Positions 1-63,980 are shown, counted from the first letter of the stretch. The stretch: DNA of 64,000 nt from Patescibacteria group bacterium (GCA_041665545.1 JBAYIQ010000001.1:67495-131494), one strand, 5' to 3'. Notes: generated by a model not told the origin, from the letters alone. Numbers and translations: made by a program.

Positions 1-1188
1 AAGTTGCTCCTAAATTTATAGGCCTTAATCAGTCTTTCTCGTCTTTTGGCCAATCTATATTTGACAAAAAACCATTCTACTTTAGTTTTGGTCTTGGAAT
101 CTGGCTTGAAGGCGTTCAAATTCATAGTGCTGAATTGTTTCAAAGAGCCAAAAACTGGGGAAATAACACGGCCGGGATTATATTGATCGTGTGGTGAAAG
201 ATAAATTAATCTGATCTTACATTCAAAGCCAATTTTTGCGGCCTTCTTCTGTATCGCTTCCAAGGCGTCTTTTTCTCCGGGTGTCAAATGCAACATGATG
301 CTAGGCAAGTCGTCTTTTTTAACATCTTTTCTTGACTTATCACCTGGTACATCATTCCACCAAAACATTGACTGGCCATTCTCCAAGGTGAAAAGGCCAA
401 ATATTGACGGTAAAATATTTGCGTACCATGATTTTTTTGATTCTGGCGCTTTTTTACCCGCCAATTTCATGGCTGCTTCTTTAGCTTTTTTTTGCCATTT
501 TTCACCATAGCAAGGACGAATCAACAACTGCAACCAAACACGCTCACCATTTCTTATTTTACTCATGGTTTCTATTACCGAAGCCATGGGATCTTTGAAT
601 TCACCACTGACTGAATCCTCAAATTCGGTGTAAGTGCGTATGGGGTAAATTTCCGAAGCTACTGGCACCACTTCTGTGCCCCACATATTATAATCATCAT
701 TGGGAAACTTGGATGAAACATCGGTGGTATAGTCGTTGACTTCGGTTATTTCCGCGTCCGGATACTGTGAATAAATTGAGCTTTCCACTAGGTCTCGCCA
801 ATAGTCGGGTGTTCTAATGAGAAACTGCACATAACCATCAATACTAATGATTTCAAAAGAAAAAGCTAATTGAAAAACTCCTTCCATTTTTTCTTTAAAA
901 CTAATGGGTGTATGAGCACCAGAAAGTGTGGCAAATAATTGCTCGACAGCTTTGGGAGTTTGTTCGGAATCGCGCGGTATGTCAATAGCCAAAAAAATCC
1001 ATTTTATTTTATTGAACCATTTTACTTGCTTATAATTGTGCCAGACATCATAAGCCATCAAGACAACAACAAAAGCATAAATCAAACCCACACCATGAGT
1101 AAAGGCATAGATCATTAGCTCGTCGGCTGGCAGTGAGCCAACCTCAGCCACAGCATTCCAGTCTATTAAAAAAGAAGTCAGATCCATA
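1..1188 (-). CDS. Partial CDS (C-terminus lies beyond the window start). N-terminal TM helix plus domain, paralogous to the N-terminal region of the VirB4/TraC-like ATPase at 17242-19698.
   Basis: Own translation of the minus strand from the ATG at 1186-1188 is open to the window edge (MDLTSFLIDWNAVAE...). It shares the N-terminal TM segment and a domain pattern with the 818-aa VirB4-like protein, the 5' portion of a large gene. Confidence 0.4.
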
Positions 1189-34563: not shown

Positions 34564-35029
34564 TGTCTAAATAACCCTGTAAGCCGAATTCTGTCGAGGA
34601 TGATCATCTATCTAGGCCCATGATTGCTCATGGGCTCAAGCGGTTTACCCGCCCCTTGATTTCTCTCAGGGCCTATTTAACCTTTCACCGAGTAGAGTTT
34701 ACCTCTTTTGCTTTGTCACCAAAGTAACGTGTCAGCTCATTATCTGACAATTTCACCCTTACCCATTTGACTCAGCCTTGCGGCTTCGCTCAGGGAGGAA
34801 TATTTTCTGTTGTACTTGTCTTGACTCTTGAGTCACCTCTCAAGCCAGTTGACGTTATCAACTACCCGCCCCGCAAGCGGAGCCATTGGTGTTCGGACTT
34901 TCCTCCCTGAACCACTCACTCCGTTCGGGTATCAGGGCCGAAGCCCTTTTACATTATTACGGCGTGAGCCGTGTACCCGAGCAAAGCGAGTGGTTCACGG
35001 CGATCATCTGGGTTATTTAGACGATTATT
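34564..35029 (-). ncRNA. rnpB: RNase P RNA, bacterial type A
   Basis: On the minus strand: GGGAGGAAAGTCCGAACAC (P4 5' strand), ACAGAAAATA, GGGTAAGGGTGAAA, ACAGAATTCGGCTTACAGGG (P4 3' strand), and a P1 helix CGTCTAAATAACCC/GGGTTATTTAGACA. Confidence 0.85.
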
Positions 35030-49029: not shown

Positions 49030-49058
49030 TTGACAAAATCTATAAAATGTGATATATT
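49030..49058 (+). promoter_or_regulatory. Near-consensus sigma70 promoter (TTGACA-17-TATATT)
   Basis: TTGACAaaatctataaaatgtgaTATATT about 65 nt upstream of the start codon. Confidence 0.55.
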
Positions 49059-49126
49059 ATAAAGTAAACCAAAATGGCTAATTCCAGCCACTGGTAAGTA
49101 CTCTAAACATTCCCTAGGAGGTCGTG

Positions 49127-49753
49127 ATGGCAGCGATTCTGTTGTTCGCCTTTCAGGTCATCATGGCCTGGATCTACATGATTCCGCAGGTGATCGGCAT
49201 CCTGCATGGTAAGACCGGTGGTCTGACGCTGGCGATGTGGCTCATTTTCATGGGCTACCTCTTCGTCAGCCTCTCGTTATCAGTCATGGCCTGGAAAGAG
49301 AAGAGGGAGCGGATTAGGCTCTACACCATCATCATCTTTGCCCAATGGGTCGTCTTTATCTCTGCACTGTTCATCATGTGCATTGGATCAGTCCATTGGT
49401 CAAACGGTGACACGGCAGTATGCATAGCTGTTGTAGTGCTATCCATCTTCACTATTTCTCGCCATGGACTCAAGAACCCCATCACTCGTGGCTGGCTAGC
49501 AGTTTGGTGTAAGGGCATCCCCCAACTCTGGATGGCTTATACCATGTGGCACCAAGGTAGTGCTGAATGGCTACCGACCATTTCACTACTGGCCACCAAT
49601 GCTACAGCCATGCCTCGGCTGGTGCAGGTCTATCTGCAAGGCAAGCACGGTGGCTGGGACAGACCGACCAAAGCACTAATGCTGGGCGAGTCATCTAATG
49701 TCGGAACATGGCTAGTGGTAACACTGGTCTGGCTCACCCTTAGAGTGTTCTGA
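49127..49753 (+). CDS. GC-rich polytopic membrane protein with two IPQ-initiated 3-helix repeats (PQ-loop/SWEET-like)
   Basis: GGAGG RBS with a 5-nt spacer. About 6 TM. IPQ motifs at residues about 20 and about 130. GC about 55%, against about 33% in the flanking sequence. Confidence 0.45.
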   Translation: MAAILLFAFQVIMAWIYMIPQVIGILHGKTGGLTLAMWLIFMGYLFVSLSLSVMAWKEKRERIRLYTIIIFAQWVVFISALFIMCIGSVHWSNGDTAVCIAVVVLSIFTISRHGLKNPITRGWLAVWCKGIPQLWMAYTMWHQGSAEWLPTISLLATNATAMPRLVQVYLQGKHGGWDRPTKALMLGESSNVGTWLVVTLVWLTLRVF

Positions 49754-49801: not shown

Positions 49802-49836
49802 GAAGCCCGTTGCACACGCGACGGGCTTTTTCTTTA
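49802..49836 (+). terminator. Intrinsic terminator (8-bp stem AAGCCCGT/ACGGGCTT plus T-run)
   Basis: Seen directly in the sequence. Confidence 0.65.
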
Positions 49837-58914: not shown

Positions 58915-59679
58915 ATGCTGTTGAATATTATTATCGCCTCTTTATTGGTCAGCCTTCTTTCGCTAGTGGGTTTAGCTGTTTTTTCCAAAAATCGCTATAG
59001 CCACAAAATAATGGACGGGGCTATAGCGCTGGCTGCTGGTGTGCTTTTGGGCAATGTTTTTTTTCATATGTTGCCGGAAATCATGAAAATGCAGGTAGAA
59101 AACAACTATGACCCGCAACAAATTTCCTTGTGGATATTGGGGATCATAATTTTTTTATTTTTTACCGAACAATATTTGCACTGGCATCATTGCCACCGCC
59201 ACCACTGCGACGACCAGCACGAGCACACTGACCCGGCTGGCGTAAATATCTTGCTTGGCGATGGAATACACAACCTAGTAGATGGCATGGTAATCGCCGC
59301 TAGCTTTGCCGTTGATAATTCGGTGGGCTGGATGGCAACTTTGGCTATTGCTTTGCATGAAATACCGCAAGAGATTGGTGATTTTAGTCTACTTTTACAT
59401 TCTGGCTTTTCCAAGGCCAAAGCTTTATTTTGGAATTTTATATCTGGATTACTGGCTATTGTCGGCGCTGTGGCTACTTATTTTTATGCCCGAGTTGCTG
59501 AGCACGAAATTATTTTAATATCTTTGGCGGCCGGCAGTTTTTTATACATTGCCATGTCTGATATTATGCCACACCTCCAAGAGCAGAAAAGAGTCAATCA
59601 ATTTACACAAATTTTGTGGTTTATAATTGGACTGGCTTTAATATTTATGGCCAATAAATTTTTTAATTTTGAAGCTTAA
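58915..59679 (+). CDS. zupT: ZIP-family metal transporter (ZupT-like)
   Basis: HNLVDGMVIAASF and HEIPQEIGDF motifs. His-rich loop HWHHCHRHHCDDQHEH. Confidence 0.8.
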   Translation: MLLNIIIASLLVSLLSLVGLAVFSKNRYSHKIMDGAIALAAGVLLGNVFFHMLPEIMKMQVENNYDPQQISLWILGIIIFLFFTEQYLHWHHCHRHHCDDQHEHTDPAGVNILLGDGIHNLVDGMVIAASFAVDNSVGWMATLAIALHEIPQEIGDFSLLLHSGFSKAKALFWNFISGLLAIVGAVATYFYARVAEHEIILISLAAGSFLYIAMSDIMPHLQEQKRVNQFTQILWFIIGLALIFMANKFFNFEA

Positions 59680-59704
59680 ATTTATTCCCAATCTGACGAA
59701 TCGT

Positions 59705-59733
59705 TTGACAGAAATTTGATTATATGCTATACT
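59705..59733 (+). promoter_or_regulatory. Sigma70-like promoter (TTGACA-17-TATACT) driving leader elements A and B and the receiver gene
   Basis: TTGACAgaaatttgattatatgcTATACT. Confidence 0.45.
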
Positions 59734-59761
59734 CTTTTCATTGACAATTTAACAAACCTTT

Positions 59762-59866
59762 GAAGCAAGGAAGCATTATCTTTATTTGGACGCTTGGATA
59801 ATGTGGAGCTAGTAGCGTAACCGGCAACAATTTTTGGTTACGCTTCCTAATGGGAAGTGTTTTTTG
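59762..59866 (+). promoter_or_regulatory. Structured RNA leader A (riboswitch-like) ending in an intrinsic terminator
   Basis: Conserved blocks GAAGCAAGGA / TTTGGACGCTTGG / GGAGCTAGTAGCGTAACCGGCA. Alternative 8-bp hairpin GCGTAACC/GGTTACGC. Terminator CTTCC..GGAAG plus TTTTTT. Confidence 0.45.
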
Positions 59867-59900
59867 TTGAATGTACCTTTAAAAAATCACACAATCAATC

Positions 59901-60051
59901 GATGAGGCAAGGAATGATCGTCTGTATTTGGACGCTTGGTCCTCCCACTCCGCCATCTGGCGGATATGGACGGACGAGGACGATCAGGAGCTAGTAGCGT
60001 AACCGGCAATTTTTTTGGTTATTAGCTAAACACCTCATTCAGGTGTTTTTT
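59901..60051 (+). promoter_or_regulatory. Structured RNA leader B (paralog of A with an extended internal stem) ending in an intrinsic terminator
   Basis: Same three conserved blocks. 62-nt insertion forming CCGCCAUCUGGCGG and GGUCCUC/GAGGACG stems. Terminator CACCTcattcAGGTG plus TTTTTT, directly before the receiver gene RBS. Confidence 0.45.
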
Positions 60052-60083
60052 GTTACCTGGTGGCTAGCAAGGAGGAAAAGAAC

Positions 60084-60461
60084 ATGAGCACGATTTTTGT
60101 CTTGGACCAGAAGGAATCTGCCGAATCCCTGGCCATGGCACTCTGTCAGGAAGGACACGTGACTTACATAAGTTGCGACTACAAAAAGGCCTTAAGACAG
60201 ATCGCTGAACTGACCGCCGCCAAAGCAGGGCCAGATCTAGTGTTGGCTGAATTTCTGGAAACAGACGGGGCAGAACTTTGCAGGGAACTGCGGCGATACG
60301 GTCTGACCAGGAAAATCAAGGTTGTACTGATGAGTCGCGGTGGTCCGCACAGCAATATTGATTATTACCGCCGACTGGGAAAAAGCTACGGAGCAGATGA
60401 CTACTTACTCAAGTCAGACGACCTGCGAGCAATCGCTCGAAGCATCCAACACTTGATCTAG
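60084..60461 (+). CDS. Stand-alone receiver (REC) domain protein with the phospho-acceptor Asp replaced by Glu (pseudo-receiver)
   Basis: AAGGAGG RBS with an 8-nt spacer. CheY-like fold sequence: IFVLDQ, DLVLAEF (E at the phospho-site), conserved K in KVVLMS..., GADDYLLK. About 50% GC. Confidence 0.6.
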   Translation: MSTIFVLDQKESAESLAMALCQEGHVTYISCDYKKALRQIAELTAAKAGPDLVLAEFLETDGAELCRELRRYGLTRKIKVVLMSRGGPHSNIDYYRRLGKSYGADDYLLKSDDLRAIARSIQHLI

Positions 60462-60476
60462 ACAAGGAGGTGTCTC

Positions 60477-60527
60477 ATGGATCTGATCAGCGTCCTCATC
60501 CTCATCTCGGCCAAGTACGAGTGGTGA
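60477..60527 (+). CDS. 16-aa hydrophobic micro-ORF (MDLISVLILISAKYEW), translationally coupled to the receiver gene
   Basis: Strong AAGGAGG RBS 7 nt upstream, 12 nt after the receiver stop codon. Followed by hairpins and a terminator. Confidence 0.3.
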   Translation: MDLISVLILISAKYEW

Positions 60528-60596
60528 CTCCCCTCACCAAAGAAAGGTGGTGATAAAAAATTCGACAGTACAGATGATCACTGTCGATAATAACCT

Positions 60597-60640
60597 CGGG
60601 GTCAGACACACTCACTATCTGACCCCGAACAAAAAATCAT
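60597..60640 (+). terminator. Intrinsic terminator (perfect 9-bp stem CGGGGTCAG/CTGACCCCG plus A/T-rich run)
   Basis: Seen directly. Preceded by a second perfect 7-bp hairpin CGACAGT..ACTGTCG at 60563-60586. Confidence 0.55.
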
Positions 60641-60700
60641 TGATTTTCCGACTTGATTGTGCTACATTAAAAATATATAGAATATTCACAATTTAAATAA

Positions 60701-60824
60701 AGTGAGGCAATGACTGATTACTATCCATTTTGGACGCCAAATTGGTAATCAAGAGCTAGTGGCGTAACCGGCACTTTTATCAACTAAGCCACCCACCTCA
60801 CCAAACATTAATTGAGGTTTTTTT
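60701..60824 (+). promoter_or_regulatory. Structured RNA element C (third paralog of A and B) with an intrinsic terminator
   Basis: GAGGCAATGA / TTTGGACGCC / AGAGCTAGTGGCGTAACCGGCA blocks. Terminator CCTCA..TGAGG plus TTTTTTT. Confidence 0.45.
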
Positions 60825-60839
60825 ATGCCTAAATAAGCA

Positions 60840-60868
60840 TTGACAATTTAAAAAACATGGGTTATAAT
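60840..60868 (+). promoter_or_regulatory. Consensus sigma70 promoter (TTGACA-17-TATAAT) with a 230-nt AT-rich leader for the lipoprotein gene
   Basis: TTGACAatttaaaaaacatgggtTATAAT. Confidence 0.55.
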
Positions 60869-61103
60869 AACCAGTTAATTATTAATCATAAATTAGATAT
60901 TGCGCTAACCTTGAAATTTTATTTTTAGACTAGCGGAATATCTAAATAGGAAAGAACATTACAACTTGGGAAATCACACAATCACACCGACTCCACCAGT
61001 AGTTATGAAATAATCTTACCAAAACATTAAGGGAGGTGAGTAAAACTAGAATTCTCCTTCGGTTTCTGTAGATCGCCAAATCACAGATTACAGGAGGCAA
61101 GCG

Positions 61104-62174
61104 ATGAGATTCGTAAGCGTTCTGCTACTGGTTGTGGCTTCCTCGGCGCTTCTGCTGGGTGGCTGCGAACAGAGCCCCACCACTCCGGTGGAAAACCTCA
61201 GCCCCGGACAGGAGCACAATGTCTTCCTGTCTACCATGTATGCCAACTACGGCATCGAGCAGTACCACAATGTCGATACCGAACTGGCTATCAATCGTGC
61301 CAGCAAGGTGTTCGCCAAGCAGCTGAACCTGCCCGAAGCCGAAGTGCGACAGCAGATGGAGCAAGGAATCCGGGTCTTCAACGACCTGGAAGCTGCTGGG
61401 ATCATCGATTTCGACCATTTCAAGATCATCGATCCGTCGGGGTTTGCTGAATACATCAGCAACCTCGACCCCGCCACCACCCCCGAAGAACGGCGGATGG
61501 TTCGAGACTTGATCGGCGATCTTGTCGCCACTGGCGCCGACAAGTCCCGAAGCTACGACCAGGTGGTGGCCAAATGGAACCACCACTCCGTCACCCAGCG
61601 GCTCACCAGCTGCCTGGACGTACTGGCGGCCAGTGATGAGTTCTGGACGACGCCCGACGCAGACAAGAAGCAACCCTATACCGCTGGCGAGGTCCAGATG
61701 TGGGATACCGGCGGAGCTCTGGCGGGAGCTTGGCTCGGTGGTCCCCTCGGAAGCCTGCTCGTAGGAGGGCTCACCTCTTATCTGGCAGCCGAATACTGCT
61801 CGCTCTGCCCGCCGGACGAACCGCCGCCGCCACCGCCGCCCCCGCCGCCGCCACCGCCGTCACCGAACGGTTATGATCCGCCGCCCGTCGTCCTGTCCGG
61901 TTTCATCTCTTTTCCTCCTCGCCACCCCGCTGGCTGGGCGGTGGTGGTCATGCTGATCGTCTGTGTCACGGCCTGGCTGATATTGCACAAGCGATATCAG
62001 CTTGGTAAGTTCTGGGGTTTGGGCATGATCATGCTGATCGGCTCCTTGTCCCAGATCGCCGCCAGCAGCATCAGCCACACCAACAACAGCATGTCGATCT
62101 TGCTGTTGGTGATTTCCAGCGTGATCGGAATCTGGCTCATTCGTCGCAACACCCAACGGCGAGTGTTGAACTAG
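61104..62174 (+). CDS. GC-rich lipoprotein with a poly-proline linker and C-terminal TM helices
   Basis: AGGAGG RBS. Signal peptide with lipobox LLGGC. PPDEPPPPPPPPPPPPPSP tract. Two or three C-terminal hydrophobic helices. About 58% GC. Confidence 0.6.
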   Translation: MRFVSVLLLVVASSALLLGGCEQSPTTPVENLSPGQEHNVFLSTMYANYGIEQYHNVDTELAINRASKVFAKQLNLPEAEVRQQMEQGIRVFNDLEAAGIIDFDHFKIIDPSGFAEYISNLDPATTPEERRMVRDLIGDLVATGADKSRSYDQVVAKWNHHSVTQRLTSCLDVLAASDEFWTTPDADKKQPYTAGEVQMWDTGGALAGAWLGGPLGSLLVGGLTSYLAAEYCSLCPPDEPPPPPPPPPPPPPSPNGYDPPPVVLSGFISFPPRHPAGWAVVVMLIVCVTAWLILHKRYQLGKFWGLGMIMLIGSLSQIAASSISHTNNSMSILLLVISSVIGIWLIRRNTQRRVLN

Positions 62175-62199
62175 ACACCTCAAACAGAGACCACGCATA

Positions 62200-62247
62200 G
62201 GACCCCGCATCTGTTGCATTCACAATGCACTGCGGGGTCCTCTTTTT
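62200..62247 (+). terminator. Intrinsic terminator (9-bp stem GGACCCCGC/GCGGGGTCC plus TCTTTTT)
   Basis: Seen directly. Confidence 0.65.
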
Positions 62248-62410
62248 ATTGACTAAATGCTAAATATATACTATAATTTTTTTGTTTTTTATATTTATTC
62301 GGGGACCCGTCCGCCTCGGCTACGCCGCAGGCGTGCCGGGCGAGTCTACTATTCATAAGGACATAGTCATATATAAAACAAGTAGTATAATTTACATTAT
62401 TTTTAAACAT

Positions 62411-62484
62411 TCGGGGATCGTCTAATGGTAGGACAGCGGCCTTTGAAGCCGTGAATTGGGGTTCGAATCCCTGTCCCCGAGCCA
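62411..62484 (+). tRNA. tRNA-Gln (anticodon TTG)
   Basis: Cloverleaf: acceptor TCGGGGA/TCCCCGA, D-loop AATGGTA, anticodon loop CTTTGAA, T-loop TTCGAAT, CCA encoded. Confidence 0.8.
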
Positions 62485-62741
62485 CTCGACTCGTCGTCGT
62501 TTCACTCCGCCTCGCTCGTGATTTCAGCTCCTCACTTCGTTCGTTGTTTCAACCCTTCATATAAAAAAGACGAGGTGAGTGTCCCGAGCGTAGTCGAGGG
62601 ACAAAACAATTTTTTATGAAGTATACCTAAGATGCTGCGCAATAGCGCAGCGCCCCGAGCCAGCCTTCGCCAAGGCTACGGCTGGCTTACAGCCATAAAA
62701 TATACCACAAAATTTAAAAATTAATTAAAAAATAAAATTAT

Positions 62742-63599: not shown

Positions 63600-63932
63600 A
63601 TGGCGAAGGATGAACTCCCTCCGGACAAGATCGAGATCCAGGGCGGCCGAGTAGTCAGCTTGGAAGAGTGGTGTATGTGGAACGGAGAGCCCGCTCTCAC
63701 GCTCCAAGTCTCCAGAATCACGAGCGGCTACTCTGTCTGTGTGTCTGACCCCGAACATGGTGGCCATGCCCCGAGACAGGGTGCTACCCTGCAAGAGGCA
63801 GCCGTCGATGTGCTGCACCCCGAGGTCATCGGGAAACTGGAAACGCTCTTCGGGATGAAGAATCCAGCCGAAGCGCAGATACGCGAGCATCACTATCGCA
63901 AGGGTGATGGTCTGCTGGTCATCATCGGCTAG
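63600..63932 (+). CDS. GC-rich hypothetical soluble protein (110 aa)
   Basis: AAGGGGGTGA RBS, ATG at 63600, about 58% GC. Own promoter and terminator. Confidence 0.55.
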   Translation: MAKDELPPDKIEIQGGRVVSLEEWCMWNGEPALTLQVSRITSGYSVCVSDPEHGGHAPRQGATLQEAAVDVLHPEVIGKLETLFGMKNPAEAQIREHHYRKGDGLLVIIG

Positions 63933-63943
63933 TGCCCTCGACT

Positions 63944-63980
63944 CCGCCGCTCAGCTAACAACTGGGCGGCGGTTTTTCTT
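63944..63980 (+). terminator. Intrinsic terminator (CCGCCGC/GCGGCGG stem plus TTTTTCTTT)
   Basis: Seen directly. Confidence 0.6.

Follow-up and report, generated by a model that had tools for sequence, protein, structure and literature searches.

The question raised by one locus of a Patescibacteria group bacterium is to which class three repeated RNA elements belong and what they control. These elements, designated A, B, and C, lie together with genes for a receiver-like protein (REC), a micro-protein, and a lipoprotein in a block (59705-62247) of a DNA stretch of 64,000 nucleotides (GCA_041665545.1 JBAYIQ010000001.1:67495-131494; this whole stretch is the window, and positions are counted from its first letter). 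An earlier note, made from the sequence alone, regarded them as transcription-attenuating riboswitches whose RNAs match no nameable class. The three elements are aptamers of a named class, the cyclic di-GMP (c-di-GMP)-II riboswitches, and not a new riboswitch class. The best explanation of the whole, to which a probability of roughly 0.85 can be given, is that of three complete class II riboswitches, with A and B gating the REC/micro-protein operon and C forming a separate cargo unit. The class is known, and what is new is the context, which comprises a Patescibacterium, a conserved pseudo-receiver/micro-protein operon, and a variable surface-protein slot. The coordinates of the features are given in Table 1.

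The window was scanned against Rfam at curated thresholds, and 59600-61150 was then scanned with permissive filters. The first scan found RNase P and two tRNA-Gln genes together with a single riboswitch, namely element A, which scores 67.7 bits on c-di-GMP-II (RF01786), above the gathering score of 53.5. With permissive filters, element B (59896-60017, 47.3 bits, E 7.7e-9) and element C (60694-60782, 49.4 bits, E 1.9e-9) were also matched, each with end-to-end coverage of the model, and no other credible Rfam match was obtained in 59600-61150; the E-values of the three copies span 1e-9 to 1e-14. RF01786 was the top-scoring family of its clan on every copy, and overlapping matches to lower-scoring clan members (c-di-GMP-II-GAG and c-di-GMP-II-GCG) were discarded. 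A model of our own (R1) gave 87.7, 68.1, and 65.3 bits for A, B, and C, respectively. Conservation of the ligand contacts was judged from the Rfam consensus only. Membership in c-di-GMP-I (GEMM-I, RF01051) was rejected, with no match in 59600-61150 even at E<=10; the loose likeness to GEMM mentioned in the earlier note was thus right in suspecting c-di-GMP as the ligand and wrong in the class, which is II.

The repeats have all the features that the earlier note described. Within the window there are exactly three occurrences of the 21-nt block GAGCTAGT(A/G)GCGTAACCGGCA (59806, 59988, and 60753), against 0 expected from shuffles; TTTGGACGC is found in all three copies, and GAGGCAAGGA is exact in B with one mismatch each in A and C. 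Element B carries an insertion that folds as had been described, although its length, measured against the orthologue in the related locus L047 (loci are labelled L with a number), is 40 nt rather than 62 nt. The L047 orthologue, which has no insertion, scores 57.9 bits on RF01786 and passes the gathering score, so only this hairpin keeps B under the cut-off. At 6 other loci, 7 aptamers carry unrelated hairpins at the identical site, which is flanked by GGACGCUU and the 3′ strand of helix P3, and the insertion of B is therefore an optional, variable stem.

The fold is supported by comparison with relatives, which were found by a pattern scan with one genome per species, followed by the selection of 18 Patescibacteria-like loci. 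The gathering score is reached by 24 aptamers in 15 of these 18 loci. In a covariation alignment of 24 aptamers from related loci, P3 is 99.5% paired, with changes on both sides in 8/8 pairs, and P2 is 100% paired, while P1 has well-paired and covarying inner pairs, a poor outer part, and 67% pairing overall. Pairing reaches 86% of cells in total, compared with 29-43% after a shift of the 3′ partners by 1-3 columns, and none of 500 shuffles attains the observed value. Absence of covariation, which according to the earlier note would have spoken against its reading, was thus not observed, and compensatory variation in P2 and P3 is strong.

With regard to the genes under control, A with its terminator and B with its terminator follow one another between one strong promoter and the open reading frame (ORF) that begins at 60084, which agrees with the earlier description of A and B as a tandem pair; both are of one class. 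Each of the three copies is followed by its own intrinsic terminator, consisting of a hairpin and a U-tract, and together with the aptamer matches this bears out their reading as transcription-attenuating riboswitches. The terminator of C was missed by the scanner because of its long loop, and changes in the stem of terminator A in L047 preserve pairing. The same tandem layout is present in L007, L011, L047, L055, L059, L098, L102, L113, L122, and L127. In 12 pattern-seeded loci, the gene that directly follows the aptamers is REC-like, and aptamers lie directly upstream of the REC-like gene in 4 of 5 loci that were found independently from the protein; the REC-like family is therefore tightly linked to the riboswitch.

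In several loci (the window at 59867-59895, L007, L055, and L113), the U-tract of the upstream terminator runs into a -35-like TTGxxx followed by a -10-like hexamer 17-18 nt on. In the window, this sequence reads TTGAAT, a 17-nt spacer, and CACAAT, just before aptamer B. Each "tandem" riboswitch may thus have its own weak promoter and fire alone.

Tandem c-di-GMP-II riboswitches are known as 59 doublets and 9 triplets, mostly from Paraclostridium and upstream of a surface-anchor protein gene, and such a layout should make the response steeper and pseudo-cooperative (PMC9481103). As in those cases, two complete riboswitches of the same class stand here in series, each with its own expression platform. 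On the other hand, the phylum is another one, the genes controlled here encode a pseudo-receiver and a micro-protein rather than an adhesin, and the weak promoter-like sequences between the copies might permit independent firing.

Table 1. Features of the riboswitch locus and its surroundings in the window
Feature	Position	Strand	Description	Basis or remark
Promoter of the A-B-REC operon	59705..59733	+	TTGACA, 17-nt spacer, TATACT, TG extension	11/12 matches; conserved in L047
Aptamer A	59752..59835	+	c-di-GMP-II riboswitch	RF01786, R1, covariation
Candidate anti-terminator of A	59815..59843	+	Alternative hairpin GCGUAACCGG / UUGGUUACGC	Duplex energy -15.4 kcal/mol
Terminator of riboswitch A	59840..59866	+	9-bp stem (59840-59860) and U-tract	
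Aptamer B	59894..60019	+	c-di-GMP-II riboswitch with extra hairpin	RF01786, R1
Optional hairpin of B	59938..59977	+	GC-rich, 40 nt, in P3 loop, just 3′ of pseudoknot strand	Absent in L047
Terminator of riboswitch B	60028..60054	+	60028-60048 and U-tract	
REC	60084..60461	+	Stand-alone receiver-fold protein, 125 aa, Glu56 at phospho-acceptor position	Shine-Dalgarno sequence AGGAGG 60070-60075
Micro-ORF	60477..60527	+	MDLISVLILISAKYEW, 16 aa, hydrophobic	Shine-Dalgarno sequence AAGGAGG 60464-60470
Two conserved hairpins between micro-ORF and riboswitch C	60562..60629	.	60562-60587 and 60595-60629	
Putative promoter of C	60653..60683	+	TTGATT, 17-nt spacer, TATAGA (or TAGAAT as -10)	Inferred from sequence
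Aptamer C	60694..60782	+	c-di-GMP-II riboswitch	RF01786, R1
Terminator of riboswitch C	60795..60825	+	ACCUCA/UGAGGU 6-bp stem, 12-nt loop, seven U	
Sigma-70 promoter before cargo gene	60840..60868	+	Perfect: TTGACA, 17-nt spacer, TATAAT	12/12
Long hairpin in cargo leader	60896..60942	+	GATATTGCGCTA ... TAGCGGAATATC	Read from sequence
Lipoprotein	61104..62174	+	356 aa, lipobox LLGGC	G+C content at third codon positions (GC3) 0.74
Terminator of lipoprotein gene	62199..62248	+	11-bp stem AGGACCCCGCA/TGCGGGGTCCT and U-tract	Inverted repeat I6
tRNA-Gln(ttg)	62411..62484	+	Conserved landmark downstream of the module	

The first gene of the operon encodes a pseudo-receiver with Glu at the acceptor position, as the earlier note had proposed. 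As a single sequence, the protein scores 25.6 bits on Response_reg (PF00072), under the Pfam cut-off of 30.2, and a single-sequence search for homologues gave one match, so a profile was required. The profile of 12 relatives matches receiver domains in the PDB at E 1e-11. The AlphaFold2 model (predicted local distance difference test, pLDDT, 91.7) has the (beta-alpha)5 topology of CheY-like receivers, and its best Foldseek matches are receiver domains of the OmpR family (probability 1.00), among them that of the PhoB D10A/D53E mutant. The acceptor Asp expected at the end of beta-3 in PF00072 is lacking, and Glu56 is the residue aligned with it. Glu is found at this position in 11 of 12 family members, with Asp retained in one sub-branch, while Lys110 is nearly invariant. 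The substitution makes the protein a pseudo-receiver, which, judging from its sequence, is unable to accept phosphate. It would probably signal via protein contacts; more speculatively, the micro-protein might mediate such signalling at the membrane. About 15 clusters, most of them without a precomputed Pfam domain, make up this small family among 5.8 billion sequences, and its members are 25-35% identical between lineages.

Comparable pseudo-receivers or phosphomimetic receivers include PhoB D10A/D53E (PDB 2jb9) and the FrzS receiver (2i6f), both of which are among the Foldseek matches of the REC model. The (beta-alpha)5 CheY-like fold, the replaced acceptor Asp, the conserved Lys (K110), and a Ser at the Thr/Ser position are shared with them. 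In contrast, the Asp-to-Glu change in the present family is natural, occurs in most members, and is found in a stand-alone protein; in addition, the first acidic pair is degenerate (D8, Q9), and the protein is paired with a conserved micro-protein under riboswitch control.

The micro-ORF is a real gene, whose frame, start, stop, and Shine-Dalgarno sequence are kept in three relatives, with 6 of 8 substitutions at codon position 3. The earlier note described it as translationally coupled to REC; in correction of this, the micro-ORF starts 15 nt past the REC stop codon with its own AAGGAGG, and the two ORFs are close without overlap. The same locus in distant relatives encodes a conserved micro-protein of about 21 aa with the ending LIDLFWWLR(K/R), mostly directly after the REC-like gene, and its codons, as read from the sequences, differ synonymously. 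The peptide of the window has the same position and a diverged motif, and orthology between the two is probable.

A second family of small proteins (60-90 aa, ...ENLDWD(T/S)KVL...EE(L/Q)A...) is encoded before or after the REC-like gene in many relatives, including L102 (882-1157, minus strand), L011 (1112-1375), L059 (about 872-1093, minus strand), L098 (2588-2797), and L055 (about 82-285, minus strand). It is missing from the lineage of the window and has no convincing Pfam match.

The expression platforms are read as OFF switches, in which c-di-GMP would lead to termination; this direction is inferred from thermodynamic folds and complementarity. When the aptamer helices were forced in constrained folds, the terminator formed in A, B, and C. 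In the unconstrained folds of B and C, the aptamer 5′ strand pairs with the 5′ arm of the terminator; GAUGAGG of B is complementary to the 5′ arm and loop (CCUCAUU) and GUGAGG of C to the 5′ arm (CCUCAC). The alternative hairpin of A takes up the 3′ strand of the pseudoknot and overlaps the first 4 nt (ACGC) of the terminator. Across loci, the complementarity between strand and terminator arm shifts in step (GAGGC(G)/(C)GCCUC in many, GAAGC/GCUUC in A, and GAGAC/GUCUC in L092), and 13 of 27 leaders have z < -1.5 against shuffled arms. Without ligand, the aptamer 5′ strand (UGAGGC-like, and in A also GCGUAACC) would pair with the terminator 5′ arm and permit read-through, while with c-di-GMP bound, the same strands would be locked in P1, P2, and the pseudoknot, and the terminator would form. 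Two such OFF switches in series would be expected to give a steeper shut-off of the REC/micro-protein operon as c-di-GMP rises.

Several points weigh against this explanation as a whole or in part. B and C score under the Rfam gathering score, and P1 is short, at about 3 bp in A and 2 bp in B. Nothing found speaks for c-di-GMP synthesis by this genome; no GGDEF motif was seen in the 64-kb window or 8 kb beyond, and a regular-expression scan for GGDEF, EAL, and HD-GYP in the window and L001 gave nothing useful. C may add little to lipoprotein expression, given a promoter that intervenes. As to the direction of switching, it is read from thermodynamic folds, the unconstrained, ligand-free fold of A keeps a 7-bp terminator, about half of the 27 related leaders have no significant 5′-strand complementarity, and all four functional class II riboswitches of Clostridium difficile are ON switches (PMC6366702).

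These last points on folding and precedent also speak for the opposite logic in the same riboswitches, namely that c-di-GMP prevents termination, as in C. difficile class II, which is a possible but less probable alternative. Each terminator, however, lies 4-22 nt downstream of its aptamer as a self-contained hairpin and shares no strand with P1 or the pseudoknot, and a bound aptamer would therefore have no means of blocking it. Moreover, the sole competing pairings use aptamer strands that are sequestered in the ligand-bound fold. OFF switching is thus preferred for A, B, and C.

Element C is proposed to be a separate unit of promoter, aptamer, and terminator, from which read-through would enter a second conserved promoter and the cargo gene for a surface protein. 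Its putative promoter block is conserved in three relatives. The two hairpins that precede it show compensatory changes among the window, L047, and L122 and probably end or stabilise the REC transcript. An ORF in the same region (60547-60696, 49 aa) was rejected as a gene, with frame-breaking indels in L122. C precedes the lipoprotein gene, as had been stated, but its own terminator and the perfect sigma-70 promoter lie between them. The -35 TTGACA of that promoter is invariant in L047 and L122, both of which have -10-like hexamers at the same spacing, and in L007 the terminator is likewise followed by TTGACA. Control of the lipoprotein by C is therefore indirect at best, and C may only be able to add read-through to an independently firing promoter or may act as a separate small transcript.

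The latter could mean that C is not a cis-regulator at all but a stand-alone transcript of about 140 nt, serving as a small RNA, a c-di-GMP sponge, or an insulator before the cargo promoter. The conserved TTGACA downstream of the terminator of C in all three close relatives and L007 fits this idea, as does the retention of aptamer and terminator while the cargo changes. It is nevertheless unlikely, since the distant relatives L092 and L111 place the same type of aptamer directly before homologous genes for the lipoprotein and the secreted protein, respectively, and read-through would still add to transcription of the cargo. C is accordingly best regarded as part of a cargo unit.

In line with the earlier description, the cargo gene of the window encodes a lipoprotein that has a poly-Pro linker and, at its C-terminus, transmembrane (TM) helices. 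Its layout comprises an all-helical domain, a conserved Gly-zipper, the poly-Pro linker, and three TM helices. The lipobox (L-x-[GA]-C) was read by eye in MRFVSVLLLVVASSALLLGGC, and its Cys is conserved in most homologues. The family is rare, with 9 representatives in 1.84 billion proteins. By its sequence, the lipoprotein locates the window on the NCBI contig JBAZSO010000001.1 (GCA_041662385.1), the proteins of which are labelled "Patescibacteria group bacterium" by NCBI. Foldseek found no match for the model (pLDDT 74.8) in the PDB at E<=0.001, and Pfam gave nothing significant for the lipoprotein, for the small helical proteins of relatives, or for their secreted cargo. In L092 and L098, a lipoprotein homologue is followed by a separate 69-76-aa membrane protein resembling, by eye, the C-terminal TM part of the window protein, which therefore looks like the product of a fusion through the poly-Pro linker.

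The cargo after C differs in all three close relatives. The 356-aa lipoprotein of the window is replaced by a 234-aa secreted protein in L047, of which a 43% identical homologue lies behind a riboswitch in L111, and in L122 by two proteins, one of 246 aa and, after it, a FlgD_ig/Por_Secre_tail protein of 954 aa. The long hairpin of the cargo leader has a matching stem with changed bases in L122, as read from aligned sequences.

The rest of the module is found at a constant site. The close relatives L047 and L122 (REC 92% and 94% identical, respectively) share the gene order around it, which reads, in L122, as acetate kinase, PTAC, PfkB, SpoU, a 541-aa membrane protein, a ZIP transporter, A, B, and REC, then the micro-ORF, two hairpins, C, the cargo, and a SurA-like gene. 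In more distant relatives, with 66-70% DNA identity in the flanks, the module is bounded by the ZIP or 541-aa gene on one side and tRNA-Gln(ttg) on the other. The riboswitch/REC/micro-ORF part is therefore ancestral to a clade and not a recent island. No integrase was called within 10 kb on either side. The hallmarks of a tRNA-linked island (an integrase, flanking direct repeats of the 3′ end of the tRNA, and absence in relatives) were thus not found, the one repeat seen being a duplicated promoter with the first 8 nt of the tRNA, and the claim of horizontal acquisition is abandoned for this part, with swapping limited to the cargo after C.

The composition is more complex than the GC-rich block in a genome of about 33% GC that had been described. 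The block has 49.8% GC and its ORFs are indeed GC-rich (REC 0.51 and lipoprotein 0.60), but the window has 38.6%, and the leaders and intergenic regions have 0.36-0.41. GC3 is 0.45-0.76 in module genes versus 0.18-0.40 in flanking genes in most relatives examined; the REC-like genes of the single-riboswitch loci L036 and L074 are not GC-rich. Given the synteny and the anciently diverged proteins, a single recent transfer cannot explain this bias.

A tentative and rather improbable extension is that the locus represents an undescribed c-di-GMP output specific to Patescibacteria, in which the OFF tandem gates a non-phosphorylatable receiver and a micro-protein of about 20 aa, C anchors a hypervariable slot where GC3-rich surface-protein genes pass between lineages, and the codon bias is part of the mechanism. 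GC3-rich codons might then be kept via recurrent exchange, biased gene conversion, or selection on mRNA, and the signal might even be c-di-GMP of the host cell that bears these epibionts.

Recent acquisition of the entire 2.5-kb block as a genomic island beside tRNA-Gln is improbable, even though GC3 of 0.56-0.74 against a window median of 0.37, the nearby tRNA gene, and the differing cargo would suit such an origin. Besides the conserved site between diverged flanks and the missing integrase, the leaders and promoters are host-like in composition, and REC is GC3-rich in most lineages (exceptions L036 and L074) despite its low identity between them; the GC bias must therefore be old and maintained. 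A phage origin was likewise rejected; the sole pattern hit in a viral contig (L121) lies in coding DNA with no TTGGACGC upstream and no model hit, and is a chance match.

It is mainly in the pseudoknot, which joins the P3 loop to the 3′ tail, that the aptamers depart from the Rfam consensus. The strands of the pseudoknot are ACGC (59790-59793) and GCGU (59815-59818) in A and ACGC (60734-60737) and GCGU (60762-60765) in C. ACGC/GCGU, in place of the consensus GCAC/GUGC, is complementary in 24 of 24 sequences, an invariance that is partly due to the selection of loci by a pattern containing GCGTAACCGGC. The loop reads GGACGC (consensus GGGCAC) and the tail GCGUAA (consensus GUGCAA), which amounts to two compensatory changes with four Watson-Crick pairs kept. 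The same tail variant was found by the pattern scan in at least 118 loci of Bacillota, Chloroflexota, Actinomycetota-labelled metagenome-assembled genomes (MAGs), and many Patescibacteria.

On this basis, a c-di-GMP-II-like variant for another ligand, such as another cyclic dinucleotide that is maybe even derived from a host cell, could be considered. Four highly conserved pseudoknot positions are changed, U18 is G in A and B, the clan of RF01786 holds variant families, and no diguanylate cyclase was seen in the DNA scanned. All four pseudoknot differences, however, are Watson-Crick compensatory, and the variant families are outscored by RF01786 on every copy. Furthermore, many MAGs of Bacillota and Chloroflexota carry the GCGUAACCGGC variant, and in L048 (low-GC, phylum uncertain) this variant precedes a protein with GGDEF and HD-GYP motifs, as read by eye. 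Another ligand is therefore very doubtful, and c-di-GMP is retained as that of A, B, and C. The idea that the copies are merely duplicated promoter/terminator fragments without a conserved fold, for which nothing speaks except the repetition itself, is refuted by full-length covariance-model matches of all three, gathering-score matches, and the strong compensatory variation in P2 and P3.

The c-di-GMP-II riboswitch was reportedly first described in Clostridia, by Lee and co-workers in 2010. The present elements resemble the RF01786 class in having P1-P2-P3 and the pseudoknot, the same conserved junction sequences, an intrinsic-terminator platform, and surface and signalling protein genes as targets, and they differ from it in the pseudoknot sequence, the very short P1 of A and B, the optional P3-loop hairpin of B, the predicted OFF logic, and the host. 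In C. difficile, Cdi-2-1, Cdi-2-3, and Cdi-2-4 likewise act by transcription termination on surface-structure genes, with pilA1 and sortase-dependent adhesins as targets (PMC6366702); unlike the platforms here, which are read as OFF, those are ON switches. Literature searches gave no report of native c-di-GMP riboswitches in Patescibacteria.

The assignment removes a false lead, in that the RNAs are not a new class, and provides a concrete handle on second-messenger signalling in Patescibacteria. The pseudo-receivers, the apparently unannotated micro-protein, and the swappable surface proteins are candidate effectors of surface change in ultrasmall epibionts. In addition, the aptamers might be put to use as native regulatory parts in a group without inducible expression tools, the need for which has been raised (PMC11665869).

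Some other elements were noticed in the window. The promoter and first 8 nt of tRNA-Gln (TTCGGGGA) are duplicated about 112 nt upstream (62249-62350 versus 62364-62417; D1, D2), and the upstream copy continues into GC-rich sequence, CCCGTCCGCCTCGGCTACGCCGCAGGCGTGCCGGGCGAG, that is not a tRNA and has no Rfam match. Just downstream of tRNA-Gln (62625-62690), there is a GC-rich double hairpin, GCTGCGCAATAGCGCAGC ... AGCCAGCC..GGCTGGCT, of which a stretch of 31-38 nt is 94-100% identical in distant Patescibacteria (L111, 6208-6245 and 6378-6408; L007, 5376-5410); a conserved small RNA and a repeat element are both conceivable.

Two GC-rich ORFans lie outside the block. The first (49124-49753, plus strand, which is the minority strand there) encodes a 209-aa multi-TM protein with GC3 of 0.64 (median 0.37) and no Pfam match; it has a TTGACA-type promoter (about 49031-49059), a terminator (about 49806-49835), and a composition like that of the riboswitch module, with no aptamer upstream. 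The second, p110 (63600-63932, plus strand), encodes 110 aa with GC3 of 0.68 (over the ORF from 63561) and has a promoter-like sequence of its own and, at 63944-63972, a strong terminator. L122 lacks this ORF, and there SIMPL directly follows the SurA-like gene. Pfam found nothing significant for p110, whose segment GYSVCVSDPEHGGHAPRQGATLQEAAVDVL presumably resembles HicB-like antitoxin domains. Finally, the RNase P RNA (bacterial class A, 34564-34951, minus strand, 173.7 bits) shows deletions and non-standard pairs in its outermost helix and a shortened peripheral stem in the alignment.

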